DNA from: Eledone cirrhosa
Lineage: Eukaryota
Length of the DNA: 64,000 bases
Reading direction: 5' to 3'
Assembly: GCA_964016885.1 (NCBI GenBank)
Contig: OZ024744.1
Coordinates: 99,510,001 to 99,574,000, forward strand
A program made the position numbers and the translations under genes. Positions 3,517-59,460 of the stretch are shown piece by piece (position 1 is the first letter of the stretch; each line of letters opens with the position of its first letter). The notes under the pieces are model-generated. The model was not told the DNA's origin. It did not search any database and worked only from the letters and a program-made list of their open reading frames with translations.

Positions 3517-3518
3517 AT
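3517..3518 (+). CDS. Syb: Synaptobrevin/VAMP coding exon 1 (AT of the split start codon AT|G)
   Basis: Exon 2 starts with an orphan G before TCT GGA (Ser-Gly), so an upstream exon must end in AT. acaatcAT|GTAAGT has a consensus donor and A at -3. As I recall, vertebrate VAMP2 has the same split ATG. Confidence 0.72.
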
Positions 3519-28540: not shown

Positions 28541-28582
28541 GTCTGGACCACAAAATCCACAGGCTGGCCCTGGGGGTCCACC
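28541..28582 (+). CDS. Syb: Synaptobrevin exon 2, (M)SGPQNPQAGPGGP(P); 42 nt, phase 2-2
   Basis: ttacttAG|G TCT GGA CCA ... CCA CC|GTAAGT. GC-rich island in AT-rich intron; Pro/Gly-rich N-terminus typical of synaptobrevins. Confidence 0.92.
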
Positions 28583-29467: not shown

Positions 29468-29573
29468 GTCAGGCCCACCACAGCCTGGTGGCCCTCCTGG
29501 CCCGCCACAAGGCCCCCCTCAGCCTGTCCAGCAAAGTAAACGGTTGCAACAAACACAGGCCCAAGTTGAAGAG
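29468..29573 (+). CDS. Syb: Synaptobrevin exon 3, [35 protein letters not shown]
   Basis: tctttAG|G ... GAA GAG|GTAATT; start of the R-SNARE motif (RLQQTQAQV). Confidence 0.97.
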
Positions 29574-29825: not shown

Positions 29826-29904
29826 GTTGTAGATATTATGCGCGTGAATGTTGATAAAGTTTTGGAAAGAGATTCTAAAATCTCTGAACTGGATGACAGA
29901 GCAG
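29826..29904 (+). CDS. Syb: Synaptobrevin exon 4, [26 protein letters not shown](D); contains the zero-layer Arg
   Basis: ctacAG|GTT ... GCA G|GTTAGA; near identity to the VAMP1/2 SNARE core. Confidence 0.98.
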
Positions 29905-32579: not shown

Positions 32580-32659
32580 ATGCACTTCAAGCAGGTGCCT
32601 CACAGTTTGAAGCAAGTGCTGGAAAACTCAAACGTAAATTCTGGTGGAAAAACTGCAAG
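32580..32659 (+). CDS. Syb: Synaptobrevin exon 5, (D)[26 protein letters not shown]
   Basis: tttttAG|AT GCA ... TGC AAG|GTATGT; ASQFE site and the juxtamembrane KLKRKxWWKN motif. Confidence 0.98.
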
Positions 32660-33539: not shown

Positions 33540-33591
33540 ATGATGATAATACTTGGTGCAATTGTGGCAGCCATTGTCACTGTAATCATTG
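33540..33591 (+). CDS. Syb: Synaptobrevin transmembrane exon 6A, MMIILGAIVAAIVTVII(V); 52 nt, phase 0-1
   Basis: tactaaataatttcAG|ATG ATG ... ATT G|GTAAGT; canonical MMIILG start of the VAMP transmembrane domain. Confidence 0.96.
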
Positions 33592-34358
33592 GTAAGTGCT
33601 GGTGTCATCGATTATCAATCACTTTCTTGTTGAGTTTGTTTACAACAGCTTCATGGAAATACAGTTTTTTTTATCCACTCAGTATATGCAATAACTTGCT
33701 GTTTAGTTTACTTTTTTTTGTTTTTTATTTTATAAAACAAGCAAAAAGTATGGGTTACTGCATCAAAATATGTTGAGTGATAAAAAAAAAAAAAATCTTT
33801 CAACCACATAAGAGCTGATTGTTACTGAACCAACATTTCGAAAGTGTTTTTCTTTTCTCCAGCACTGAATGCCAATTTAGAAATTTTATTTATTTCAAAT
33901 TTTTATATACTTTAACAATTTGCATCTGAATTTTTTTCCCCATAGCACGCAAAGCAAATTTGCTATCTTTCTTTCAACTTTTTTTTTTTTTTTTTTTTCC
34001 AATATCTATTCTGGAATGTTATTATGCCTATTTTTTTTATCTTGCACTTGCACGCCAATCAAACATATATATATATTTTTCTTTTTTTTTTTTTCAAATT
34101 TTAACCTCTTAAATTAGATTGCTATTTGATTAAATTTCATAAATGTGACCAGCTTCTGTTGTGCTCGTTGATATGAAATTTAAAAAAAGTAACAATAACA
34201 CAGAAAAATCAAAAAGCATTCGGACAATTTTCAAGAAATTTATTTTTTTTTAATGTTGAAGTCAATCTTTTTAGAGGTTAAACCATTTTATTTATCTTCT
34301 TTACTTTACAATTTTTATTTATTTGCACTTTTGGCTTTTTTGAAATTCTCTTTTACAG

Positions 34359-34410
34359 ATGATCGCTATTCTTGTTACCATTGTACTTGTGATTATTATC
34401 ATTATCATTG
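34359..34410 (+). CDS. Syb: Synaptobrevin alternative transmembrane exon 6B, MIAILVTIVLVIIIIII(V); 52 nt, phase 0-1
   Basis: ttctcttttacAG|ATG ATC ... ATC ATT G|GTAAGT. Same length, phases, first codon and last 7 nt as exon 6A, with an uncharged hydrophobic translation. Confidence 0.88.
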
Positions 34411-36633
34411 GTAAGTTATTGTTGGTCTTACGAACTGCCATCTACTCTAACACTGTAATGCAAAGAAGATGTCGGTTCTTTTGTGCTGCTCTAACATTCT
34501 CTTAATTCCAGTGAATGAAATACCTCGATTTCATAAACCATCTATTAATCCACTTTTTAAATGCTTTTTGTAATACTAATTTCTCAGTTAAAAATGGATT
34601 AGGTTTTCAATTCTAAATCGTGTAAAACACTGAATTGAAATTCAATTTAACAAAAATTTCAGCAACTTTCTGTGATAATCCTGAATATTATGTTGCTATT
34701 ACTTTCTGACTTCCTAACTTTTGCAACTATCCCGCTCTTGCAACCCCCCCCCCCCCCTCGTTCTTCATTTTTTGCTCTTTCTCTCTGAAAGTCGGTCTAT
34801 TATTGCATGATTGGTTTTATGTATATTTATGACCAAACATGGTTTGGTCATAATTTACTAGGTGCTATCCTGTTGAACTGAATAAAGGCTAAAAGATCCA
34901 ATGTCAAAAAAATTAAATCTAATTTCATTGAAACTAGAACAGGGCTTAAACCAAGTATATGATCAGGACGAAGTTCATTGTGAGAGGATAGTTCACAGCT
35001 GAAGATGCAACAGATTTCAAAGACGATCTGGTTGGTGATTGGGCAAGACAACCTTTTCCTAAAGAAAACACCACATTTGCAAAGGAATATTTGAAAAATT
35101 ATTACAAACTGAGAAATTGGTTAATTCAGTTTCAGCTTCCCATCTAATGGAAATCCATATGTAGTTGAAGTTTCAATATTTAGAAAGTCAATCTGTTGTT
35201 GCTAGAACAACCACATAATTTTCTTTTCTTTTAACCCCCTATTTCATGAAACATGAGTAGGTGACCAGACAAATCTAGATTTTGAATTTAATCAGATTGT
35301 TTATACAAAATGTTGCCTTGGAGGGCTCCAAAGAAGTCTTCTAATAGAATAGTTTATGGATTCCAGTTACTTGTTGCAGATAAGACTTGTTCCTCTTTTG
35401 TAATCATAAATGGAATAGACCTTGGTTTCAATGAGTGTTCCAGCTGTTCATGAAATTATGTAAGTGAAACTAGTAAAATAATATATGCACACACACGCTG
35501 GAAAGTGGTTGGTGATAGGAAGGGCATCCAGCTGTAGAGGGCTTGCCAAACGGTTGTTAAAGACATGATAACCTCCCCTTTGCACCTGACAACTTGAGAC
35601 AAATCCATGACTTATCTGGGAAATCAGTACTGACTTGGTCTATGTAGAACCTGTCCAACGCTTGCTAACAGGGAAAGTGGACGTTAAAATTATATATATA
35701 CTGGAAAGACTGATGTAAAACTATATAAGCCTTTCATGTATTGCTGTAGCATTGTAGTATATGAAAACGGCTTCTGGCTGAGAATAGAGCAGAATAGATT
35801 TGAGAGGATTCTTCTGGCAACTGATCCACTCATTTTAAATGTTGATTATCATGAAGCTAGAAACTTGTCCATTTGCCCAACTTTGAACTGAAGATGCTCT
35901 GAACTTAAATTTGGATTAAACATTTTAAAATGATTGAGCTAAGAATCTAGTACACCAGAAACAAACATCATCAGTTCAGATTTTATTAATGAATAAGGCA
36001 ACCTGAATATCCTTTGCTCAATCGCATAGCACATCCTGTAAAATGGTTGGTGTTAAGAATGGTATCCAGCTGTAACTATGCCAAATATGGAACTTATAAG
36101 CAAGATGCGATATCTTTGTCATCAAGTCTAAAACTATGACAATCCGTCCCACCCATCCAACATGGAAGGCAATGTAAAATTATGTTGATGAGGGTTGTAT
36201 TTTTGTTTTTATATAAAGTTTTTTTTTTTTTGTATTATCCTAATCATATATTTTCAAGTAATAATCAAATTGTATGTATGCAAAGGTAGAGAAATGGATG
36301 TAAAATAAAGAGAACTGTATATTGTTTTTTTTTAATATAAATTAACGTAATCATATATTTTCAACTAATCAAATTGTTTGCAAGCATGGAGAAATGGGTG
36401 TATGGTGATGTTTCTTAACATTTAATTTGTGTGTGTTTGTATGTATATATATATATATATATATACACACACATACAAATGCAATGAATCTAAACATATC
36501 AAATATATTAGAATTTTGTGTTTCTCAATAAACAAGCTCAATAGACATTGTCCAGTAATAAATCAATTGTAAAAGATATATATCTATATATATATATATA
36601 TAGAGAGAGAGAGGTGTGTGTGTGTATAGAGAG

Positions 36634-36668
36634 AGAAAGAACCATATTTTGTAGAGAAAACAGTATAC

Positions 36669-36711
<43 letters not shown>

Positions 36712-36838
36712 TGGATACATATTTCATTGAGGATTCATTAAGGAACATGTACTCAAGATGAGTACATGTTCCTTAATGAAATATGTATCTAGTATATATA
36801 CGATATACTGTGTTTTCTCTACAAAATATGGTTCTCTC
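36634..36838. repeat. Long interrupted inverted repeat (fold-back)
   Basis: Perfect 22-bp inner arms at 36734-36755/36759-36780, with further arms at ~36703-36723/36780-36800 and 36638-36662/36811-36835. Confidence 0.92.
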
Positions 36839-38116
36839 TTGCTCAAAATGTAAATATTACATATTTATTAGTGTAAATGCAATAGGTGTATGGTAGATAT
36901 TTTCAGTTAAGTTTTTCACAAATTAGCTTTTGCAAACATTTTGTAAATGTTCTGTGGTAGTTACTTTTAGGCTGTTATGGAAAACTAAACGCTTGTTTCA
37001 TTATAATTGATATGCCAAATATCAAGCATTAGGCCTCCTGGACTGCCATGTTCCTTCACCAAATTCGGATGGATGAGGACATCACATACACTAAGGGTGG
37101 AGCCTGGTGGGAGTGGAATGGCTGATGCCACGAATATTACTGCTTGTTTTCTGCAGCAATATTTTCGCCAGGTTATCTGGACGCAGCTTAGATAAGCCGT
37201 CCAACTATGATAGGAGAGTTTGCTCCCCTTTTCCTTGTTTTTTTTGTTTGTTTCGTTTTACTGTTAAATTCTAGAAGAAAAAAAATCTTCACATCTTATT
37301 TAACATGTTAATCACCAGCTAACTGAACCATTAAATTATTCCTGTTAATTATGTGGAATTGGTTTGGAGCTTATTTTGTAGCTTGCAAAGTAAACTGAAA
37401 TATTAAAAAAAATTATTTATTTAGAATTTTTAGATTTACTGGATGGTCTAATTCCTCTTTTTAAACAAAATAATTTCCATTTTAACATTCAAACATTTTT
37501 CTGGGCCTATTAGTTCAGCAATTATTTTATGCCAACTTACCTGAGGCTACCCCTGTTTCTATGCTGTTCATTTTGAAATTGAAACCTTCCGCAACAGAGG
37601 CTCTTAGATAAAATTTTGTTCCAAAACAGTATGGTGATGTTAATAATTTTTTTTCTTCTTTTTTTATGATTGCATTCCACCTTTCTTAGACTTAACATAC
37701 CTTTCTTAGACTTAACATTAACAATTCCCATTTCTTCCTTGGTCAGCTTCTGTAAGTTTCATTATGTATTATGTGTCTATACCAGTTAGCTCTCTTTGCA
37801 TACCTACTTTCTAGTTCTTGAGTATGCTCAGTTTTTTTTATGTTTTATGCATATTATGATCCATTGGGTTTTCAGCGTTAACTAATTCTTCATCATATTT
37901 CATACACATTGCTTTATTCATTAATACCATCAAACGCCATGCCTTCTTCATGCAGGTTACTCTTTGCCAACAGGGGACTGCAATTCTATCATTAGGGAGC
38001 TGAAATTCCTTCAGTTCGTGGTTTTCTCAGTTACTCACTATTGTATACATGGTTCAAATCCTCCTGGTACTTCAGTTTTTAGGTTTGTTTTTTTTTCCTA
38101 TACACATGCCAGCCAG

Positions 38117-38151
<35 letters not shown>

Positions 38152-39721
38152 CTTGGCCAAATGTTTTGTTTGTAATCATTTGGTCCTGGGTTCAATCCCA
38201 CTGTGTGATATCTTGAGCAAGTGTCATTTACCATAGCCACAGGTTAATCCAAGCCTTGTCGGTGAGATTGGGTAGACAGAAATTAGAAATTGTTTGAAAG
38301 CTTGTCAGATGGACTGTACCCATCAAGCTAAATCTCTGAAAATTGCATTACAGGTACATATGTTTGTGGAATGCAGTCACTTACACTTTAATTTCATGAG
38401 GAGGCTTACTCATTGACTGAACATGTAGAACATCTAGAACACATCAGAACCATAGGTCTGTTCTGTGTGTTTTGTATAAATGGTAGTATCAGTAGCAAGC
38501 ACCAGACAGTTGTTGTCTTTGTCAACTACTGTGGTCAATTTGACTTAACTTCTTTGTGGAGAAGGCACATGGCTTAATGATTAGGGTGTTCTGTTCACAA
38601 CTGCAAAGTTATGAGCTTGATTCCTAAAACGCGTGCTAAAACGTGTATCCTTGAGCAAGACATGTCACTCTAGTTCACTCAACTAGCAAAAATGAGTTGT
38701 CATTCAGGATCTCCCTGAGAATTATATCAAGAGTGTCTGTGGAATGCTAAGCCTCTTGCAAATTAACAAATATACTGCTTGTGAAATTAATGTGTAACTT
38801 AGGTTGTAATAATTGTATACTAACTACATCAATGATTATTGGCAGTAATGATGATTATAGTGGTGATGGCTTATGAGTTGTATCAAACATGACAACCTCC
38901 TTAATGCTGGTGCCACAGTGCAAAAGACTCAGCACTCTGTAGAGTATAGCAAGATGTGGTTCATCCGTGATGTCTGTCGCTCTGATTAGGTATTGAAATG
39001 ACCCATCCAACTCTTGCTAGCAGGGAAAACAGACATTAAATGATTGATATATCATCATCGTTTAACGTCCATCTTCCAAGGATATTTGGAAGGATTGAAT
39101 AGATTTTCAGCCTGATCTTTGTTAAAAATCTAAAAAAAAAAGCATAAATCATAAATGCATTCTACAAACTTTTCTAATCTGGCTATAAAATGGTTCTTTA
39201 CATGCATACATAATATAGTGTATGTGTGTGTGTATACATGCACACATACATATATACACACACCCACAATCTCATTTACATTTTATTGTTCATCTAACAT
39301 TCTGAATTCTCTCCTTTATTTGAAAAATTATTTCAGGAAACCTTTTAATCTTATGGCTATATATTGTGCACTTTATTTAAAAAAATAAAACAAGACAATG
39401 AGTTTTCATGAATGTGTAGAAATAAGACTTTATTACTTGAATTCAACACGCATCAGTAAAATCTTTGCAGTATTTTTATTGGAATTTTAAGGTTTCAAAG
39501 AAAACAAATTGTTGAGAGTAAATTAATTAGATTTGACAATATTCTCATTTTCTTTCCTTCACGTTTGCTTTTTGTCCTTTGTACACATTTCATATGCACA
39601 TATTATATATTTCAGTTTAATTTTATTTCATTACCTTTGCAATTGAACCTTTCTGTAGAATAATTCAATGCAAGTATTTCACCACAAAATTTAACGTGCA
39701 TCGACTGTTCTTTTCCTCTAG

Positions 39722-39736
39722 TATTTCACTCATTTG
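39722..39736 (+). CDS. Syb: Candidate 15-nt microexon (V)FHSF between the TM and tail exons; phase 1-1
   Basis: TTTAAC branch-like motif, then ctgttcttttcctctAG|TATTTCACTCATTTG|GTAATA; frame-preserving. Confidence 0.35.
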
Positions 39737-40727
39737 GTAATATTTTGGTTTTTTTTTAAATTGTATAAGAAATTTTTACCTTTTTTTTTTTTTTAAATGT
39801 ATCCAACATTGAAACTGCTTCTAATGTTTATTATATTATTTCTTTTTAAGCAAATTCATTTTTTAAAAAAATTAGATATATCCTGGTAGCATTGTAATTA
39901 TGAGCATTTAACATTTATTTTACTTTACATTATTTGTATTAAAACAAAAATTTAGATTCTTTGGAAATATAATTGAGTAAAGTTGTAATTTAAATATTAT
40001 TAACTATATTTTACATTTTAAAATATTGTAGATATGTTAACTTAAATGTATATTTTTAACTGTTAACCTCTTCTTAGCTAGAAGTACTACTTAATTTTGA
40101 CCATCAAATTAAGTTTTATAAATTTAAAAAATTTATTTTAAAATTGTGCTGATATTTTGATATTCTTATATATTCACCGTATTAAATGTTTTGAGTGTGT
40201 ATGAAAACTTTATATGAAATTTAATTTTGTTTCATTAACTCATTGTATTGACAGATTTAAATTTCTTTGAAAGTAGACCTATTTTTATTGTCTCTTCATT
40301 GTTCAGTAATAATTTTAAAAAATTATTCACTATTTGGCTATAGAACTTTTTTTTTTTTTTTTCTTCCTCCATCTTTGAAACTATATTTTCTAGTGAGCCT
40401 GTATTTTTTCTTTGTCCATTTCTATTTGAATTAAATTTTAACTTGCATGTTATTCTTCACATCTGCTTGAAATTGATAGTGTAATCTCTACACATCCTTC
40501 TTGGAATTGCATCAATACAATGAGTCAATGTTTTGTGAATTGTACTTATGCAAGACAGTTATAAACGTGTGTGTGTGTAATAATATATACATATATAATG
40601 CGTGTATGATATATGTATAGGTGTATATGTATATTTGTGTGTATGATCTAAGAATAAATCTATGTACCTTAATTTATGTACCAAATTTAATCTGTTCCTA
40701 TTTTTTTGTCTTCTTTACCTATAACAG

Positions 40728-40744
40728 TCTGGGTGGCCACATAA
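40728..40744 (+). CDS. Syb: Synaptobrevin luminal-tail exon A, (V)WVAT*; probable exon end 40758
   Basis: Long pyrimidine tract, then ataacAG|TC TGG GTG GCC ACA TAA; donor GT|GTAAGC at 40759. With exon 6A it gives a 125-aa protein ending like squid synaptobrevin (VWAAT, from memory). Confidence 0.88.
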
Positions 40745-41220
40745 ATACTCTATGATGTGTAAGCTCAAATTTCTTGTCTTATGAATATATATATTGCACT
40801 AATCAACATTAGATGTTGTACATATTGTATATATATAGAGGTAGATGTTTTTTGTCTCAGATTCAAGTGTAGTTATACTTGTGTGTGTTGGTTTTCTGCT
40901 GTTAGGGGTTTTTTTTTTTTATTGCACTTATAGCTCAATTGTGTGTATGTATGTTGTGTGTGTGATATACATATTGCTTTGTAAAATACATGCTAATTAG
41001 GGAATTAAACAATCTTTCACTTTAAACCATTTGTATAATATAGTTTGAGTTCATTTTAATTTACAGTTTTGTTTTGTTTAGTGTTATAGAGTTAAAAAAA
41101 AAAAAAAGTTTCTTATTGTTAACCATCTTGTAGATGGTCTTAGGTGTTGAGTTTTAGTGTTGTTCAGTGATGACCTGTTTCAATTTAAAATGCTGATATT
41201 GGTTTTTGATCACGCTAAAT

Positions 41221-41564
41221 TCATTCATTTCATCATTTCATTTTACGTCCACTTTTCCCTGCTTGCAAGGGTGGGACGGGAACTGATTCTGGCTTGATTT
41301 CTACAGCTAGATGCCCTTCCAAACACCAACCTCATTTACAGTTAGTGCTGGGTGCTTTTTTGTCGTGGCACCTCCACGACCACTTTGCAGTGGAATGATA
41401 TGGACCCCAGTCCCTATCATCTCATTTCTACAGCTGAGTAAACTGGAGCAATGTGAAATAAAGTGCCTTGCTCAAGGAAACAACACATCACCCGGTCTGA
41501 GAATTGAGCTCACAACCTTTCGATTACAAGGCCAATGCTCTAACCACTAAGCCATGTGCCTCCA
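41221..41564 (-). mobile_element. Apparently full-length tRNA-derived SINE, a near-identical inverted copy of 56881-57223
   Basis: Reverse-complement match over ~340 bp (see ORFs 41311+ and 56895-). A/B boxes and an (ATG)n-type tail. Confidence 0.9.
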
Positions 41565-41577
41565 TCTTTTATATATT

Positions 41578-41676
41578 TTATAAGAACAGATTCAAGTTTA
41601 AGCAAAGAATTGCTGCTTTCACCCTTAATGGATAAAAGCAGTAATTCTTTACTTAAACTTTAATCTGTTCTTATAA
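41578..41676. repeat. 99-nt hairpin: 42-bp stem with 15-nt loop
   Basis: TTATAAGAACAGATTCAAGTTTAAGCAAAGAATTGCTGCTTT pairs with 41635-41676, with one C-U mismatch, one C-A mismatch and one G-U pair. Confidence 0.92.
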
Positions 41677-41824
41677 TAATATATATATATAATCAGTTCT
41701 GTGTGAACGAAACACACTCCTTTGACCTGGATCTCTCACAATGGGACAGCCCATCTTACCCATGTTAGTGTGGAAAATTGACATTAAAGAAGATATATAT
41801 ATTTACATTACATATTTGCTTATA

Positions 41825-42039
41825 TTAACCCTTTAGCATTTACATTACTCTATATTTACTATTGTATTTTCACGATAAACACTTTATTTCACATCTTGCA
41901 TATCGAATCTGAGATTTTGATATTTATTTTGAGAACAATACCTTAACATCAGTATGAGTGGCCGGTTACAGCCAGTTTGAACAGAAAGAGGTAAGAGAAT
42001 TCTGGCCCGATATGACCGGTTTAAATGCTAAAGGGTTAA
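41825..42039. mobile_element. TTAA-flanked piggyBac-type MITE, family 1 (intact ends)
   Basis: 14-bp perfect TIR CCCTTTAGCATTTA/TAAATGCTAAAGGG with TTAA on both sides. Confidence 0.93.
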
Positions 42040-44529
42040 TTTATTCATATTTATTCATAACACACAAAAATGTACTAAAATCAGGTTGATAGAAACAAAT
42101 CTTGCTAATAACAAATAAACTGATTATCACTTAAATTAATTTATTAATTCTGTATTAATTTTTATCAGCATTTTAAATAAATTATTGCCTCGTTACTTGA
42201 GAATGGGGACAATAATTATCCTGATTGTTCAATATTAATATACATATTTTGTTTGATTTAGTCTTGACTAAAATAATTTCATAATTACTAATTGAAATTT
42301 TAGAGTTCTGTTGAGTTCTACTTTTTCTTGTTCATATATAAATTTAGTGTAGAGAATATATTTGATCTAACTTAATAGTTGTCTAGCCCACTGATTTAGT
42401 AGACCTGCTATAAACTATCCTTCTGTTGTTAAGATATAATATCTGACTTTAAGCCAGTTAGATAGTTTGATGTAATCTAAAAGGGTTGTTTATTATTTCT
42501 AGCAGGTTGACGGATCATGTAAAAGTTCCCTTATTTCAAATTTACAGTTTTATCAAGTTTTTTTAATTTAATTTTTCTTCAAATATTGTTTCATTAGCGA
42601 CTATAGGTTCTTCTGTCCTGTACCACATGAAACCACATTCTTGAACACTATAAAACACTGACTGCATCACATTAAATATTAGTCTTTATTCTAATACTGC
42701 AGATACTCACAATCTGTCCACCAGTAAAGAAACGACAAATATTTGAACACATTTTTAAAGGTAATTTCTGATAAATCATTACAGGTTAAGAGTTAAGATG
42801 GAAGTAAAACGATGAGTTTGTTGTATAATCCCTAGCAGGACTTATTAAACAAATAGAATGGACCACTGTCAATCTCGACAATCAGTGTTCCGGTTGTTTG
42901 ATCAACAGAACAACCTGCCCATGAAATTAAGTGGCTGATCCAACAGGCTTCCAGTTTGTCTACCTGGTTTTACTCACAAGGTAGAGGTCAGCCCGAGGCT
43001 ATGGTAATTGACACTTGCCCAAGATGCCACATACTGGGATTGAAAACTGGACCTAATGATTGCAAAGCAGACTTCACCATTTGCTGTCCAGTGTTGAATA
43101 TAAATATATATATGTATATTAAATTTCATACATTTAATCTTCAGCATGCTGAATTTTTTCTTCTAGGATTGCTTCCCTTGACACTGCAATATGTATTAAG
43201 GGGAGATTATTCTAGTTACGTCCCTTTACGATCTGAGGTTGACTTTGCCTTTCATCCTGACGGGGTCGATAAAATAAAGTACCAGTAATGCACTGGGTAA
43301 TTGCTGGCCTTGTGCCTAAAGTAGAAACAATTATTCTATTGGTGATTTAACCTGGAGGCTCTAGGCACCTTAACATGTATGCACGTCCTTAGGTTTCAGG
43401 GACCAGTTATGGCCAACACTATAGTGGTGAAGTCATTTCAAAACTGGCTTCTCGTCAGGCTCCAGGACATATCTAGGGATATCCTGCACACACATGTGTG
43501 TGTCACAACAAAAAATAAAGTCCACGCTGTAATGTGGCCGTGTAGGTAACATGGTAAAAAGACTCCCAGTCAACACTGTAAATGTGGTTGGTGTTAGAAA
43601 GGGCATCCAACCGAAGAAAACCTGCCAGATAGTGCTATATGAGCGAGACAAGGTCATCCAACCAACCTTGCTTCAAATTGGGACAATTCCCGTCTAACCC
43701 ATGCTAGCGTGGAAGATGGACGTTAAACGATGATGATGATATATATAAAATCACACGCATGCAACTAATTTGAGTTAGAGAATCCATTTATATTTAAAAT
43801 AAAACGCTTTATCCCTTAATTCCCTCATAGACATATATACAAATGGTGCTGACGATCCATTAATTTCTACATGCACACACAAACAATACATACAATTGGT
43901 TCCCTCTGATAGATTTTGTTACATTTTACACATTCAGTAGATCATATTACTTTAAGCTCTAAAGGTTTTGTTAGTAATTTTCAGGCAAGCAGTTTACTAT
44001 TTTATAATCAATTGTGATCCCAAAAGGTTTTATTCTCTTGGACAGTTAGTTTCTAATAGTTTTTTTAACTCTTAACATCCTGTACCACATGAAAAGTACA
44101 AAATAGCATCATGACTGTATAACATTAATGAAGTCTTTATTCTAAAACTGCAAATGTTCACAATCTATCCACTAGCAAAGATTCTAGAGATATTTGAATT
44201 AACAAACCGCATTAGCAAGGCATATTTGAAAAGTATAAAACTGCACTGTGACTATCACATTTTAAAAAAATGGTGATAATGAAAATTGTGTATAGTGCTC
44301 AGGTGCACTACAACTCATCAAAGGTGCATGTATAGTACATAGAATAATCGTTTCTACTTTTGGCACAAGGGCAGCAATTATTCCAGTGCATTATTGGTGC
44401 TTTATTTAATTGACAACAATAGGAAGAAAGGCAGTTAACCTTGGCAGGATTTGAACTCATAGTACATAGAATAATGTACAAATGTCAGGAAAGTTAAGTG
44501 TATAAGTCATGATATACACACAGATACAC

Positions 44530-44695
44530 ACGCATATGGAGGAGGAATTTTGAAGGATGTAGTGTCCCAACAGCTAACGACTGATGCAGGTGGTTTATTC
44601 CATGCAACTCTGAGCGTGAAAAAATGTTTACGAAAGTCGTGGGGGCTATGGTGTTTTCTGACTTTGTAGACATGCCCATGGGTGTTACACATGTA
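44530..44695 (-). mobile_element. CR1/L2-type LINE 3' end
   Basis: THGHVYKVRK...RKHFFTLRVAWNKPPASVVS...SFK matches the CR1-clade C-terminal 'TRGH..K...R..FF..RV...WN.LP..VV...SFK' pattern. Confidence 0.75.
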
Positions 44696-45809
44696 AATAT
44701 TAGTCTTTTCTCTAGTACTCAAATTTTCACAGCAATCTGTCCACTAGTAAAAATACTAGAAACATTTGAATTAACAAACCTGTTTTTAGATGTTTTCTGC
44801 TAAATTATTACAGGATCTTAAGAGTTAATAGACATGTCTCTTGTAGCAGGTCTAATCATATTAATTCAAGGATTCTTTTTTGGCCGCTTTAATAAAGGCT
44901 TTAAGGGTTTTTTATTTGAGGTAAACAATTTAATGTGAAATATTTATCAAAGCTTGTCACAGCAGTTGAATTTGAAATCTACGTTTTACATCTGAGAGCT
45001 TGTAAAGTTATGATAGAGAATAGTGCTATGGAATATCAATACCAGATTTATTAATTCTTTAATTGTATTGTTTATTATCAATACTTTTACACTTTCACAT
45101 ATTTCTTTTAAATATAGGCTTTCGTGTGTTTTGAATATGGTGCATGCATTTTAATTTATATAATGTGCACTGAGTTCACTTTTTCTTCTTGAATACTGTT
45201 TATGTGGTTATTGTTTCTAAATGTTGTTTAAATTTATTTGTTACTGTTTCAAACAAATATATCACTGCTTGCAATCTGTTAAGATGTGTACCAAATATTC
45301 TTGTCTAACTTTAAATTTTATAACTTTGTATTTCAAATGAAAACTGTTTCAAACTGTGATTTTGGGTTTAATATGTAAAGTTAAGAACAGTTTAAATAAT
45401 ATTTTCTCGGAAGTCAAATGTATATTTACTAATCTATGTAATTTATATTTGGGATAATTTCAGTGAATTAGATACCATATATACTCATGTACAAGTCACA
45501 TCTTTTCCCACAAAAATGTGAAATATCAGCACAGGCCCTATCTACTTGACCTACAAAGTGGTACAAGTTAGATGCATGTAAAATGGTGTGACCTATTATA
45601 CATAAGTATATACAGTACTCATTTTTTTTTGGGGGGGGGGGTAAAGTTCAGTTAATTGAAACTCTAAAACATATTTAACAATAGAAATAACAGATCTAAT
45701 TTATTCGAATTTAACTTTTACAAAATTTTACTAATGTAATTTTATTTATGGAGTGTTAGATAAATTTTGTACTAATATTCTTTTCATTCTTTTCTCATTT
45801 ACCATGCAG

Positions 45810-45835
45810 TCTGGGTAGCCAACAAATATGGCTAA
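45810..45835 (+). CDS. Syb: Synaptobrevin luminal-tail exon B, (V)WVANKYG*; probable exon end 45837
   Basis: ACTAAT branch motif, long pyrimidine tract, then catgcAG|TC TGG GTA GCC AAC AAA TAT GGC TAA TG|GTAGAT. 11 of the first 12 nt are identical to tail A. Confidence 0.8.
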
Positions 45836-48546
45836 TGGTAGATTATTTTCATTCTTTTGATGTTGTCATTTTCGTAATTTCTTTATTTTTAATGGTTCAA
45901 CATTTATTTTATACTTAATGTAATTTATTTTTCTGTCGGTTTTAGTTTTGAATTTGTATATCAAAATTTATATCTTTGCCGATTGGGGGTGTTGTTGTTC
46001 AAACCATTATATATATATATATACACAAGTGGGAAAACCCCCGTCCAAACCCATGCAAGCGTGGAACACGGACGTTAAACGTTGATGATGATGACACATA
46101 TATCTAATGCGAAGAGCAAATTGAAGAAAAATTGGGTACTTTTTTTGTCTTAAGTCCCAACTGCGCAGTTTCACCAACTGTTATGCAGCTAAAGTGCACT
46201 GAAGTTGTGAGGTTGTTGGCTTGTCAAGATACTCCCTCAGTGTAAGGACAAATTCCCTGGACTGACTGCTACTAGTGAAATTTTCGAAAGCAAAAATTAT
46301 CACATGGTTTTAGTCAATACTGAGGGGTAGACTGTTGGCAAGTAACAGACTTGCTAGAAGAAGCAGTCTATTTCAGCTTAATTTTTAACTCAACCATATG
46401 GGAGTTAGGACAAATTATAGAAAATACATATGCATATAGATACATAAGTATTTGAGGTGTCCTTCCTTTACATATTTTGCTCGATAAATGAATTAAATAA
46501 TCATTTAATCAGAGCTATATAAAATTGTGTGAAGAGCATATATTTATATATATATACCACCATTAGTTTAGATAAAATTCTTCGCCAACAAAATACAATT
46601 AACTATTTACAATTTATATAATTCGGGAGTAAAGCAATACGGATACATCTTGAATGTTTGAATTTTAAAAATTTGTGCGGTATTTCAAAATTATATGAGG
46701 CATAAAACTAACAGCTTATGTTTATCGTTTGTTCCCACCTAAACGATGTTTACTATGTGCTTTAATTATATCATTTACGATATAGTTTCGTGAAATTATA
46801 TTAAAATTAACTGAGCTAGTGTCCAATTCTAAAACGGATTCCAATAATTTAAATTTTATTTAATGTTTTATTTTTTAAAAAGTGTAAGGTTTCAAAATTA
46901 AAGAATTCTTACTGAAAATATTTTGTATGGGCATGGAAAAGCTAGGAATTTTAGATATGATTCATGGTGGAGATGTATTGAAATTCTTTTTCATATTCCT
47001 TGATATTTGCAGCAGATGAGATAGGCATTTCTTTATTCTCTAATGCCTAATAAGGGAAAGCAAGCAGTCTGTAAATGTTGTGGGTTCTATTCCTTGACTT
47101 AGTGGTAGGTTGTGTTGAGTAAAACAATTCTTTTCATGTTGTTCCAGTCACCTCAGCTGAAAATGAGGTTATGAGGGATAGGCTCTGACCTGATGAACTT
47201 GTGTGTGGAACAGGCCTGAACTTCATATTTGATGGATTCTGGCTTTGCCATTTTTCATTCTATAATTCAAAGTAAAATGTTATCTAATGTACATAATTAA
47301 GGAATTTTTTATTGTTCAAAAATGAAAGATATTATTTATAACTTGTAAAAAGCACCAAGTACTTTTCGCAAAGTGGTTTGTGTTAGGAAAATCATCCAGA
47401 CATAGAAACCATGCCAAATTATTGAACAAATGACATGGTATGCTGACCAATCTAATCTTAGACTGTGAGAACCTGTCCAATCTTTGCTAGCATGGAAAGC
47501 TAGAATATTAGTATGAGATATCCTCTCTGTCTAGAGATGGCGGTGTACAATTAAGATTAGTGTGGCTAATGTGGTGATAAAAATGTTATATTAATTTAGT
47601 AAGTGAGGTTTCTTAACAATATTGATCTTTGAAAAGTTACTGCATGTAACATTGATCAGTCTATTGTGTTTTAGGAAATACAATTTTTAAAAAATGTAAA
47701 TTAATACAAAGGAAGTATGTTTAGAAAGCAACAAGCAAATTTTGAAAATTGAAGTAGAAATAAAAGGTTTCGTCATATCATTTGACTAAATAAGTACAAT
47801 TTTTTATCCTGTTCTATACATTTGTTTCGGAACTGCCTGAGAAGAAATATTTTAGCATTTTAAATTTTTTAATAGTATTTCAGTTAGAGGACTTAGGATT
47901 TAACAATTATCATTTGAGTACATTAAAATTTGGCAAATTGACAGTCATTAGAACATCAGCAAGAATACTTTGTAGTGTTTGTTCTGGGTCTCTGAGCTCT
48001 TTGAGTTCAAATCCTATCAATGTTAATTTATCCTTTCCATGTTGATAAAGTACCAGTTCAATAGTGGAGGTTTATTCTTCCTTTGATCTCTCTTTTGCTG
48101 GAAGAAGAAATCAGTTATGTTCAAACCTGGAGAGAGGGTGGGTTTTACCAGGTTTAAAAAATGTCCAAGGCATGTCAAGACAACTCCTTCAGGAGTTAAG
48201 GGTGCCATGGACATTGAAATATAGAACCCAATATTTACTGTATATAGTAAAATATAAGCCAATGCCATTATTTTATGTCTGAGAAATGGGCAAAAATCTA
48301 AACCTTAATTATGTAGAATTTGAAGTTGGTGAAAATCATCAAAATAATGACCCCGAATATAAGCTGACCCTATTTCTACCTTCAGGTTTTTTTTTTTTTT
48401 TTTTTTTTTTTCATGGGGGTCACATATTCCTCGGCTTATATTCAAGTATATATATGGTACTTCTGTATAAATTTTTTTTTTTTTTATGTATAGTGCATGT
48501 CATTTATTTTTATTTTATTTTCTTAATTTCCAATGTTTTAATGTGT

Positions 48547-48728
48547 TTAACCCTTTAGCATTTAAACTGGCCAGAATTCTCCTCACCTCTTTCTGTTCAA
48601 ACTGGCTGCTCATACTGATGTTAAGGTATTGTTCTCAAAATGAATATTAAAATCTCATAGATTTGATATTATGTGAGATAAAGCCTTTACCTTGAAAATG
48701 TAGAGTAATGTAAATGCTAAAGTGTTAA
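48547..48728. mobile_element. TTAA-flanked MITE, family 1 (inverted relative to the 41825 copy)
   Basis: TTAA-CCCTTTAGCATTTAAAC ... AAATGCTAAAGTG-TTAA. Confidence 0.88.
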
Positions 48729-49329
48729 ATTGTTGGAATGCTTTGATATTCAAGTTCTAAGAAATTATGTAATTGAATTGGTATATTTGAAACAATTCTA
48801 TTATATACTCAGTAGTATTGAATTTAAAATCAATAGATATTTCTTCATAAGATTTACTAGAATCGTTGTTTCTTGTCGAGCTTTTGCTGAATTTTCTTAC
48901 AATTTCTTTAAGCTTGCTTAATGAATTTGACTCCTTTCTATTTGTGTTGGTGCATATGTCCAATTTCCATTTCTTTAAACATATTTTCCCCCTTCAGAAG
49001 ACTAACAATACAATCTTTGTGTAACCCTTTTTATACCAGCCCCACTCAAAACCTACTCTGGCTCTATGAAACAAAACCACCCATTTTAATGGGTTCCTAT
49101 TTAAATTAAAATTCTCTAATATAATTTCATATAAGAACCATATTGGGCTATTATCTCAGTAATGAAATAATTGTTTGTCAATCCTTAATTAATTGAAATA
49201 GTGTCGTTAGAAACACAATCACAAAAGGGTTGAATTAAAATCTTAAAATTATTTAAATAAATACTGTTATGACATAATATAGTTTGTAATATTGACGAAC
49301 AGGAATGCATATGACATTGTAAGGCAGTG

Positions 49330-50420
49330 TTTGAGGCTTGCTCAACCAGAAGAGTAAGTTAAGCATGATGCATGGAATAGATGAACTAACTGAATGCAAG
49401 TGGAATATCTTCTAAAGCATCGGCTACGCTGTACAAGGGAAATAATTATGGGTTAAGCTGAAATCCAACTTTAAATCATCAAATAAAGTATTCTCGCAGA
49501 CCATCTGCCAACTTTGTGATAAGAAAAGGTATGCTCTGGATCTGTAGAAAGGCACCAAAGCAATGGCAATCAGGAGTGATAATCCCAATTTTTAAAAAGG
49601 AAGAAAAGGTTCTTATTATAGAGGAATATCTTTGTTAAACCTTTCCGGTAAAGTCTATGCTAAGTGTCTGGCAAAGCGATATAGAGAGATTGTTGGGTCC
49701 AAGCTAGCTGACCAAATATTCACTCTGCAGCAAGTCTTTGAGAAATTGTGAGTATTGCCAACATGTGTATGCTTCTTTTGTGGACAGTTTTTTTGTTGCC
49801 TTCAAGTCCCTGGAGGAATGATGAATGGCAGGAATGAAAATCAGTGCTGCAAAGACACTCTCTTTCTCCCAAGAAAGCCATTACAGTGCTCTCTGCATGT
49901 GAGTGGAATTCCACTGAAGCAGGTGAAGAAGTTCAAGTATCTTGGAGTAATTTTCATAGGTGATGAAAGGCAGGAGGCTGAGCAAGAATTATTGGAACTG
50001 GTGCAGTAATGTGCCAGCTTCAGCATTCAGTCCTCAGAAGAGAGGTATGTGTAAAAAACCAAATTTACTATCTTCAATTCAGTATCTGTGCAAACCCTTA
50101 CCTATGGCAATGAGTGAAATGCAAAAGGTCTTTGGCCTAAAGTTACTCAATACGTGGCTCAGTGATGGAGTTTTGGTACTGTGGACATGTGATTGAAATG
50201 TCTCAGGAAATAATCGCTGGTCAGATTTTATAGGCAAAGCCAATTAGCAGTAGACCCAAAGTTATACGACAAGGAAGATGGCTGGATAACATCCATGAGC
50301 TTAGTTGATCTCTATTGCAGATTCAGCTGGAGTCAGTTGCTTCTGATAGGACCCTCTGAAAGGTGTGTTTGAGGAGTATGTCACTATGACCCTCCCTAGG
50401 AAGAATAAGTTGTAGAAGAG
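49330..50420 (+). mobile_element. RTE-like LINE remnant (RT domain and C-terminus; internally deleted, frameshifted)
   Basis: WQSGVIIPIFKK, YRGISLLNLSGKVYAKCLAKR, LKQVKKFKYLGVIF, CGHVIEM and RWLDNI motifs, in order. Confidence 0.85.
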
Positions 50421-50773
50421 AATATATATTTTACTAAGTTATAAATGCTATGAAATTTATTTAAATTATTTTTACTTCTCATTTTAAATAAAACTTAAAT
50501 TTCACTAGTTGATAATTTTATAAATTTGTTTAAAAATGAAGTAAAATTTACATGTTTATGGTTGGAACAATTTATATTATTTCATTTATTTGTAGTTAGC
50601 TATATAGTATTTTGATAAAGTTTAAGTAGAATTAATATAAAATTACATATTTAGTCAATTCTTTGGGGTAATAAGAATTGAACTAGTTTTCTTACCAACT
50701 CATTGCATTAAGCTTTCTTCAGTTTATGAAAATATATTGGAAAGATAGGCTTTTTAAAATAGCATGTTTTTAA

Positions 50774-50823
<50 letters not shown>

Positions 50824-50849
50824 GTTTATGCACAATCATACATTGATAC

Positions 50850-51040
50850 AAATTTTTCGCACCAGTTGCCATCAAGAACTCGGGAATCCTCAGACCCCGT
50901 ACTGCCAAGCTCCTCCATAAAAATCAGAATGTCAGCAACCTATCTGAGGAAGGAGCCTTGTGATGTGGGGTGGCTGTTTCAGCAGGTGTCACTGGCCATT
51001 GTTCGCGAAAATACCTTTGCAGTTATGTCTGGGGTGCAGC
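50850..51040 (+). mobile_element. Second REL-endonuclease-type non-LTR 3' remnant
   Basis: FAPVAI ... DVGWLFQQVSLAIVRENTFAVMSG; same motif as 30530-30750. Confidence 0.6.
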
Positions 51041-51326
51041 TAAAACACAGCTCTGTTTTAAGCATAGAACCTATCACCTCTCCTTTTCCCTTATCTTTCT
51101 TCTATGACTTCATAGTCCTCGCTTTTTCCTGCCTTTTCCTCTCATTTATGGAATTTATAGTCCTTTTCTTTATAGCCAGATCTGCCCTTCTTTACTCCTT
51201 CCCCTTTTTTGATTATTTAATTTTGGTTTATATCCTTTTTTGATATTTCCATCCTTGTATAACTTCTTTTTCATAAAATATAGTTGACATGTTTATGTAT
51301 TTTATTTTTTTTTTCTTAAATTTCAG

Positions 51327-51355
51327 TTTGGCAAGTGAATGATTCTTCAAAGTGA
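51327..51355 (+). CDS. Syb: Synaptobrevin terminal exon, luminal tail C, (V)WQVNDSSK*
   Basis: ttttttttcttaaatttcAG|TT TGG CAA GTG AAT GAT TCT TCA AAG TGA. Phase 1, conserved V-W, followed by a long UTR-like region. Confidence 0.82.
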
Positions 51356-51651
51356 AGCATCTGGCTCCAGCAGCAGGACTCTTTTGACCAAAGCAACATA
51401 TTTAGTGTAGATTTGTAGGGAGTGGGGGGGAAGGGTGGGTCAGATGGTTGGATGAATGTCTTTTGTCAAGGCTGGACGTAGTGAGGGTGGGTGTGTACTC
51501 TGTACACATTTGTGGGCTTTATATATTTGTTCTGCTCTTCAGTGTGTGTGATTGTGTGTGCTTGGTTGTGTGTGTGTGTGTGTATATATATATAATATAT
51601 ATATATATATATACACACATATATATACACGTATGTATGTATATAATGTAC

Positions 51652-51688
<37 letters not shown>

Positions 51689-53437
51689 AAGTTTGTAGAC
51701 ATGTATACAGATATGTTTATGCTCTCAGAAGTATTACTAATATAATATAATTACGGATATGTTATTGTAATTTGCAATTGTTATCTGAGATCTCCCCCCC
51801 CCTTCTTTTTTTTTTCTTTTTTTTTTTTTTTTTTGTTCCTTTTTTGTGAAGGTTTTAGGAACTATATGGTGTGACTATATTGCTGCATGTGTCTTTCCAT
51901 TATTTCTCTCATCATTTTGTTTTCTCACACTTGTATGCATTACTTGCATGTATGCCTGCAGTCCTTCTCCTTGCTCTCCAGATACCTATCCTCTCCTATT
52001 ACCTTACATTTCTCTGACACAACCATGCTATGCCCACTCACAACATAGTAAAAGGAAGCCACTACTGCTGGCTTTTAATGTATTTAATTATAGTTTGTGA
52101 AAATTTGTATAAATAAAATTGTAAAAAAAATGAATAAAATACACAAAATAAAATAAAATAAATAATTTATGTATAAAATAAAATCAACTTCAAAAATGGT
52201 GTATTAGTTATAATATCACCATTTAAAAAAAATTACATTAAATATTTCATTTGGTTAGTATATGATCTATCACAGCAATTTGTAAACACTGCTGGTGTAT
52301 GTGGTTGAAATGGGGTTATTTTTCCATATTAGTCATATAACTGAAATTATTTTAGCCAATTCTTTTCCGATAGCTTAAGAAATAACTTAGACATCTCTTG
52401 GCTCATGTATTTAAATCAATGATAAATGTACTGTCATAAACCTGGACACTAACATTATTTATTTCCACATAAATATTGTTTTATAGTGCTGCTATTGCCA
52501 TTATATTCTTTTCAAAATTAATTTACCCTACATGTAAATAGTTTCTGTAAAGTCAATACAATTTTTTTTTTGTTTTTTTTTTCCTTCATTCCCCACCCCA
52601 CCTTTTATTTTTGTCATTACCTGTTTTTTTGGCAGTTGCAATTATACTTCAGTGTAACTAGTTATTTCCACAGGTGTGGCTCGACATACTTGTTCATGAT
52701 GTACAACACAATCTTAACTCTAGTACTCTCTTACTTTGATGAAATAAGAGATGAATTATTATAATTATTATTATTATTATTATTCAAAGATAATTTCTAT
52801 TTAAATTAGAAAGTGTATGGTGGATTTCCTAGCAGCTTCCATACCTCTTAATTTAATAAAATTGTGGATAAAAATTAAAAACGTAAAAAATCCTGAGCTA
52901 TTAAGATATACATTATAGGCTGTTTGAAAATAAAATTTTGAATGAAATCTCTCTTCAATTATTTTTTATTTGTTTAAATAAATTGTTTCAAATTCCTAAC
53001 TGTAGCTTGTGTCAATGCTTCATGATACAATCTGAATCTAAAAAAAAAAATACAATAAAAAAAAAAAAAAAAGAAAGAAAAACCACCAATGATTTCCCTT
53101 CCCTCTGTATATGTGTATGTGAATGTTTGCATGTAAGGAACTTTTGGTATTTGGTTTGTGTTTTTTGTTCAGTCTACTTCACACAAACCAATTTACCTAT
53201 CTTGTTATGAAAGAAAAGTACACTCTCTTAGGAGCCTTGGATTATTTATTTGTAATTTATCAATTAACTTCTGTTAACTATCTTCTCTAACTTCCTTCTT
53301 TTTAATGTTTACTCTGTAAGCTGCTGAAATGGGAACCAGATCTACTCAGTACACCAGTTAATGGTGTGAGATGTGTACAGCTCTCAGCCGAAATCTGGTG
53401 CAGATTAAATTCATCAAGCAATTCATTACCTTTATGA

Positions 53438-57723: not shown

Positions 57724-59345
57724 TTTACAGTGAGTACTGGGTGCTTTTTGTCGTAATGCCTACACTTTACAGTGTAGACTGGATGCTTTTTGTCATGACA
57801 CCTAAATGACCACTTTACAGTGTAGACTGGATGCTTTTTGTCATGACACCTACGTGACCACTTTACAGCATAGACTGGATACTTTTTGTCATGACACCTA
57901 AATGACCACTTTACAGTGAGTACTGGGTGCTTTTTGTCATGACACCTAAATGACCACTTTACAGTGTGGACTGGGTGCTTTTTGTCATGACACCTACGTG
58001 ATCACTTTACAGCGTAGACTGGATGCTTTTTGTCATGACCACTTTACAGTATGGACTGGGTCCTTTTTGTCGTGACACCTACATGACCACTTTACAGTAT
58101 GGACTGGGTCCTTTTTGTCGTGACACCTACATGACCACTTTACAGTATGGACTGGGTCCTTTTTGTCGTGACACCTACATGACCACTTTACAGTATGGAC
58201 TGGGTCCTTTTTGTCGTGACACCTACATGACCACTTTACAGTATGGACTGGGTCCTTTTTGTCGTGACACCTACATGACCACTTTACAGTGTGGACTGGG
58301 TCCTTTTTGTCGTGACACCTACATGACCACTTTACAGTGTGGACTGGGTGCTTTTTGTCATGACACCTACGTGATCACTTTACAGCGTAGACTGGATGCT
58401 TTTTGTCATGACCACTTTACAGTATGGACTGGGTCCTTTTTGTCGTGACACCTACATGACCACTTTACAGTATGGACTGGGTCCTTTTTGTCGTGACACC
58501 TACATGACCACTTTACAGTATGGACTGGGTCCTTTTTGTCGTGACACCTACATGACCACTTTACAGTATGGACTGGGTCCTTTTTGTCGTGACACCTACA
58601 TGACCACTTTACAGTATGGACTGGGTCCTTTTTGTCGTGACACCTACATGACCACTTTACAGTATGGACTGGGTCCTTTTTGTCGTGACACCTACATGAC
58701 AACTTTACAGTGTGGACTGGGTCCTTTTTGTCATGACACCTACATGACCACTTTACAGTGTGGACTGGGTGCTTTTTGTCATGACACCTACGTGATCACT
58801 TTACAGCGTAGACTGGATGCTTTTTGTCATGACCACTTTACAGTATGGACTGGGTCCTTTTTGTCGTGACACCTACATGACCACTTTACAGTATGGACTG
58901 GGTCCTTTTTGTCGTGACACCTACATGACCACTTTACAGTATGGACTGGGTCCTTTTTGTCGTGACACCTACATGACCACTTCACAGTATGGACTGGGTC
59001 CTTTTTGTCGTGACACCTACATGACAACTTTACAGTGTGGACTGGGTCCTTTTTGTCGTGACACCTACATGACAACTTTACAGTATGAACTGGGTCCTTT
59101 TTGTCGTGACACCTACATGACCACTTTACAGTATGGACTGGGTCCTTTTTGTCGTGACACCTACATGACAACTTTACAGTGTGGACTGGGTCCTTTTTGT
59201 CGTGACACCTACATGACAACTTTACAGTATGGACTGGGTCCTTTTTGTCGTGACACCTACATGACCACTTTACAGTATGGACTGGGTCCTTTTTGTCGTG
59301 ACACCTACATGACAACTTTACAGTGTGGACTGGGTGCTTTTTGCC
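57724..59345. repeat. 48-bp minisatellite with higher-order structure, expanded inside a SINE
   Basis: Unit ATGACCACTTTACAGTATGGACTGGGTCCTTTTTGTCGTGACACCTAC, more than 30 copies. A SINE tail on the minus strand precedes it at ~57567-57725. Confidence 0.96.
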
Positions 59346-59460
59346 ATCACATTAGAAATTAGTCTTTATTCTAATACTGCAAATTTTCTCAACATTCTGT
59401 TTACTAGTTAAAATACTATAAACATTTGAATCAACAAACCTGGTTTTAGACATTCTCTAT

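Follow-up and report, generated by a model that had tools for sequence, protein, structure and literature searches.

C-terminal splice isoforms of human VAMP1/SYB1 were reportedly described by Isenmann 1998 and Berglund 1999. According to PMC5288468, the transmembrane (TM) segment of the human isoforms A-D has 17 residues and is followed by tails that differ between isoforms and are 3-5 residues long. The variable junction is given there as c.340, in phase 1 and after TM residues 97-113, which is the same position as in the octopus gene described here. Human isoform D results from reading on past the donor (c.340+2/c.342; PMC5288468), whereas the octopus tails are separate mini-exons. Unlike human VAMP1, the octopus gene moreover likely has at least one tail mini-exon upstream of a common terminal exon, and it encodes two TM types as opposed to one in VAMP1 (57 of 57 scored records).

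A comparable class of events is found in C. elegans, where 136 non-triplet events of 'alternative C-terminal length' splicing, resistant to NMD, are listed in PMC13247117, which makes no mention of synaptobrevin, snb-1 or VAMP. The worm events and the octopus tails would be alike in that non-triplet splicing close to the 3' end moves the stop without triggering NMD. In contrast to the worm class, the octopus gene has two such exons in series together with an alternative TM exon pair.

The same combinations of two TM segments with two to three tails occur in the RefSeq isoform sets of Mytilus, Haliotis, Liolophura, Biomphalaria, Mercenaria, Ruditapes, Lineus and Myxine. These sets are automatic database models, and no paper describing them was found. 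Our literature search, which covered paper listings with few subscription journals, likewise returned nothing on alternative synaptobrevin TM exons or on their partition among VAMP paralogs, and PMC4342343 makes no mention of isoforms. Events that switch the tail are thus of a known kind, while the search gave no precedent for a design in two tiers that was apparently split among the vertebrate paralogs.

The synaptobrevin locus and its paired transmembrane exons

The window, i.e. the whole stretch of 64,000 nt from Eledone cirrhosa that was analysed, holds a synaptobrevin gene on the + strand. Its exons were located by a six-frame search with synaptobrevin motifs. The PF00957 (brevin R-SNARE) profile matches the locus above cut-off and the SNARE motif contains the zero-layer Arg. 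The predicted protein has a single C-terminal TM, a short Pro/Gly N-terminus and no longin domain, as is characteristic of brevins. Across three exons it matches squid synaptobrevin at 87-96%. When the genome was searched with the squid protein, all three matches fell inside the present gene; the locus is hence the sole close synaptobrevin match in the Eledone cirrhosa genome, match counts being lower bounds. The remaining PF00957 matches look like more distant R-SNAREs. Nearest named matches are squid synaptobrevin and the Octopus vulgaris record P0127, whose residues are the same as those of the Eledone cirrhosa gene through TM1, including all 17 TM1 residues. P0127 then runs from TM1 into the following intron (33592-33850), probably owing to a gene-model error.

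The first exon likely ends with the AT of a split start codon (3517..3518) followed by GTAAGT (to 3524), as suggested by the phase of the next exons. This putative first exon is located ~25 kb upstream of the next one, a 42-nt exon encoding a Pro/Gly-rich N-terminal segment (28541..28582). The latter is probably a cassette, and a segment matching it makes the difference between isoforms X5 and X6 of the chiton. Three exons assigned by motif and homology matches follow. They encode the Pro-rich N-terminus with the start of the SNARE motif (29468..29573), the part of the motif with the zero-layer Arg (29826..29904), and the end of the motif with the juxtamembrane WWKNCK (32580..32659, also matched by the profile). 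A 48-nt unit forms a tandem array at 57770-59370, and the window contains related single copies in other places as well.

The membrane anchor is encoded twice. TM1 (33540..33591) was assigned by exon scan and by P0127 and belongs to the MM..G, VAMP1/2-like class. TM2 (34359..34410), which the sequence-only reading had omitted, lies 767 nt after TM1 and was located by a scan for hydrophobic phase-0-to-1 exons. It is of the VAMP3-like class, is present in a spliced contig from sample X19 (see below) and represents an alternative to TM1. The two exons stand in tandem, both are 52 nt long and run from phase 0 to phase 1, and 32 of their 52 nt are identical; inclusion of both together would shift the frame. 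Their donors rank within the top 1% of 991 intronic GTs as scored with a donor frequency matrix. At the position of VAMP2-G100, TM1 has Gly and TM2 has Val. Beta-branched residues make up 10/17 positions of TM1 and 13/17 of TM2, and the octopus TM2 is devoid of the Trp typical of its class.

In all six mollusc genera tested, isoforms with a single TM each pair the one or the other TM form with the same core of 55 residues, and single-TM pairs are recorded for hagfish as well. Physella and Lineus have RefSeq models in which the two TM exons are included together, so the mutual exclusivity of TM1 and TM2 may leak. The hagfish isoforms X2 and X3 differ solely at residues 90-106 (TM), X1 and X2 solely at 107-110 (tail). 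Judging from sequence and isoform numbering, these hagfish isoforms would derive from one gene.

The tail exons A, B and C

Three exons able to continue from the phase 1 end of either TM exon are found downstream. Tail A (40728..40758) is preceded by a pyrimidine tract and ACAG. It encodes WVAT followed by a stop (the TAA ends at 40744) and, with GTAAGC at 40759, forms a candidate cassette of 31 nt whose donor lies 14 nt past the stop. Tail B (45810..45837) encodes WVANKYG and a stop (TAA ending at 45835); a weak donor, GTAGAT at 45838, follows 2 nt past the stop and delimits 28 nt, likely a cassette spliced onto C. The terminal exon C (51327..52180, end approximate) contributes the tail WQVNDSSK, a stop at 51353-51355 and the 3' UTR. 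Re-examination of the sequence gave the same coordinates, lengths and distances for A, B and C as the sequence-only reading, including the start of C and its N-D-S.

All three exons begin with T-N-TGG, which yields Val-Trp after a phase 1 TM exon. The stretch 34411-51400 has 28 acceptor-like sites that score as strong, and this pattern follows just three of them, namely A, B and C, where 0.10 would be expected; the pattern was picked after the exons were known, but homologs have it too. Each of the three tails moreover has matching tails in other animals. Exons A, B and C are real. In addition to the lumenal tail they encode the final helical turn of the TM, and the tails span 5-9 residues with differing charges.

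The near-identical start of A and B had been read as a sign of exon duplication. The similarity itself stands (11 of the first 12 nt match), but only 2 of the 3 free third positions agree. The identity is weak evidence for duplication because it mostly reflects the common V-W-V-A coding, and a recent duplication was dropped as its explanation.

The donors of A and B are weak: in a donor frequency table, equal scores are reached by ~9% of the 991 intronic GTs, and for any given stop a site of this quality would fall within 50 nt by chance in about 1 of 4 cases. A stronger donor, GAG/GTAGAT, is located at 40841, 96 nt past the stop of A. Its use would place this stop beyond the 50-nt limit and could yield a decay-prone form. 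ACTAAY and TGCATG occur 13 and 9 times, respectively, in 16.8 kb, numbers too small to assign a role to the copies close to A and B.

In a set of 262 proteins, B-like tails of 8 residues are found in 18 records from eight named genera, many being isoforms of the same species; the holders are bivalves, abalone, chiton and Priapulus. A-like tails occur in 10 records of the set. In a frameshifted Mytilus model the frame stays open over a long stretch past the C-like tail, as expected for a terminal exon. The likewise frameshifted Lineus isoform X3 (P0149) reads directly into T-N-TGG after the stop of its tail, which hints at one tail spliced onto another in this model. Of ten comparisons in the frame-compatibility test, two showed full compatibility, namely that of Lineus X3 to one tail and that of a Mytilus model without TM to the C-like tail; those of Physella and Priapulus were uninformative. 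A scan of metagenome contigs gave eight matches, one of them not a synaptobrevin. None of the seven true synaptobrevin mRNAs has a B-type tail, and in the two with short A-like tails no convincing second tail was found past the stop. A-like exons may hence be terminal elsewhere.

Splicing onto exon C and the competing readings

Exon C and its upstream intron were compared with assembled contigs of 4 of the 24 listed runs, none of which is on record as RNA. X9 gave no alignment and the pieces from X6 were short and did not reach the acceptor of C; neither constitutes splicing evidence. In the X19 contig (529 nt, depth 134) the alignment starts at the acceptor of C. The last 30 letters of its loose upstream end are identical to 34380-34409 and unique in the window. 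Since this loose end equals the 3' end of TM2, TM2 is spliced straight to C (51327) in X19 and A and B are skipped. A genome search revealed no retrocopy that could account for this contig. As it is unbroken for 432 letters upstream, one path dominates the sample.

Assemblers break contigs where paths merge. The contig from X1, a related organism, is 2006 nt long (depth 218) and begins two letters before C, its first letter not being displayed. The suffix common to the incoming paths would be two letters for TM and B, seven for TM1 and TM2, none for TM and A and one for TM and intron. The sole other two-letter suffix belongs to a longer form of A with unspliced intron, which should have aligned one letter further. 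Among the paths tested, the start of the X1 contig thus favours B joined to C, and we consider it likely from this one contig of a related organism that B is spliced onto C. It further argues that no direct path from A to C exists in the X1 sample, where A may be absent, joined through B, or terminal. The single path in X19 versus the branching at the same place in X1 suggests that the choice differs between samples. The relatives also differ in the UTR (51483 G>A in X1 and X6, 51497 A>G in X1), by species difference or editing, which are indistinguishable here.

The sequence-only reading had A and B as cassettes spliced onto C, with the tail of C used when both are skipped. The skipped form is shown by the TM2-C junction and the B part is likely, whereas a junction of A to C was not seen; A-C, B-C and A-B junctions were not read directly in any contig covering exon C and its upstream intron. 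Our preferred reading, which we hold with reasonable though incomplete confidence, is one SNARE core with two anchors and three tails, giving up to six C-termini, each defined by the anchor chosen and by whichever tail is included first after it. In this reading B is likely, and A possibly, a stop cassette on C. The reading starts from the exon anatomy, the phases and the single-copy status, and from the TM2-to-C junction in X19. B would be joined to C as the contig break suggests; A would be joined to C directly, with its stop 14 nt before the last junction, or via B, with 42 nt in between.

The main competitor, which we regard as rather unlikely, holds that transcripts can end with A, which would then have a 3' UTR and a poly(A) site of its own, leaving B alone as a cassette onto C. 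The lack of a direct A-C path at the X1 contig start speaks for it, as do the hexamers downstream of A (ATTAAA at 41004, 260 nt past the stop, and AATAAA at 41457, 710 nt past the stop) and the mRNAs of two relatives whose A-like tails show no clear second tail downstream. But such hexamers are common by composition in sequence of 70% AT, A is possibly unexpressed in X1 or joined through B, and the GTAAG found 14 nt past its stop equals the donor consensus from +1 to +5. That both A and B are terminal with separate UTRs, which the sequence-only reading had named as its refutation, seems improbable. It would agree with the weak donors and with a cassette junction never being read directly, but the two-letter start of the X1 contig is explained by B into C, and no AATAAA occurs within 1.75 kb after B, where ATTAAA alone is present. 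After C, in comparison, five AATAAA are grouped at 52112-52177 (cluster to 52182). Least credible of all is a dead or chance exon A or B that is never included, even though neither was seen directly in a transcript and O. vulgaris P0127 has none of the three tails. The T-N-TGG count at acceptors far exceeds expectation, B is a fixed 8-residue tail kept from the priapulid to bivalves, chiton and abalone, and A matches tails of gastropods, annelids, nemertean and echinoderms.

If A and B are cassettes as we prefer, their stops would lie 2 nt (B), 14 nt (A) or 42 nt (A and B together) from the last junction, all within ~50 nt. The 50-55 nt rule held for 91% of the NMD-sensitive C. elegans events in PMC13247117; our literature search found no mollusc data on it. 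Escape of the A and B stops from junction-dependent NMD is plausible under this rule and would give stable isoforms with the UTR of C in common. By itself it is an ordinary point. Any exon so small meets the rule automatically, such that 'positioned to escape' is indistinguishable from 'simply tiny'.

A glycosylation sequon needs 12-14 residues from the membrane. The N-D-S of tail C had been doubted as a glycosylation site for being too close to it, and rightly so: the Asn is tail residue 5, a relative has N-E-N at this place (loose end of two X6 contigs) and the C-like tail of Mytilus is without a sequon. The N-D-S was ruled out as a functional N-glycosylation site, being not conserved and its Asn far too near the membrane.

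Anchor classes and the vertebrate VAMP paralogs

That the TM exons come as a pair, one matching VAMP1/2 and the other VAMP3, is a more interesting result than the NMD point. TM classes were built from molluscs only and records were assigned by similarity score, with no tree. We chose 75 jawed-vertebrate records by name, omitting unnamed ones, and the names may in part reflect similarity. Records named VAMP1 (57/59) and VAMP2 (4/4) fall in the TM1 class, those named VAMP3 (11/12) in the TM2 class; the three unassigned records (2 VAMP1, 1 VAMP3) have no TM segment to score, and all 72 scored records fit. Echinoderm-type records (n=8) and lamprey (n=3) show the MM type only, a hemichordate record (n=1) the MW type. 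As the segment comprises just 17 residues, the likeness may have arisen by convergence.

In jawed vertebrates the VAMP1/VAMP2 and VAMP3 anchors reside in separate genes, whereas a single octopus gene contains the two as exons. Isoform records indicate both anchors in one gene for other molluscs and hagfish as well. We put forward, as a proposal about evenly balanced between right and wrong, that the ancestral bilaterian synaptobrevin had mutually exclusive VAMP1/2-type and VAMP3-type anchors followed by stop mini-exon tails, serving as a cell-type switch of the fusion pore, and that jawed vertebrates later fixed one anchor per gene.

In mammalian cells, exchange of natural TM variants alters fusion-pore kinetics (PMC7239655), replacement of G100/C103 by Val nearly abolishes evoked exocytosis (PMC5460238) and a longer lumenal tail inhibits release/exocytosis (PMC5288468). 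By analogy to this VAMP2 work, the choice of anchor and tail in the octopus may tune fusion-pore behaviour or sorting, and one gene could thereby be used for regulated fusion of the VAMP2 kind as well as for constitutive fusion of the VAMP3 kind.

It is debated if SNARE transmembrane domains actively shape fusion. With two anchors and three tails for the same SNARE core, the octopus gene represents a 2 x 3 panel made by nature that was apparently kept in protostomes and deuterostomes, so questions on SNARE anchors and tails become testable with evolved variants. Our proposal moreover offers a concrete origin of the difference between VAMP2 and VAMP3. If true, octopus, other molluscs and hagfish keep an ancestral switching of anchor and tail by splicing, and fixation of one anchor after gene duplication would be how neuronal VAMP1/2 and ubiquitous VAMP3 diverged.
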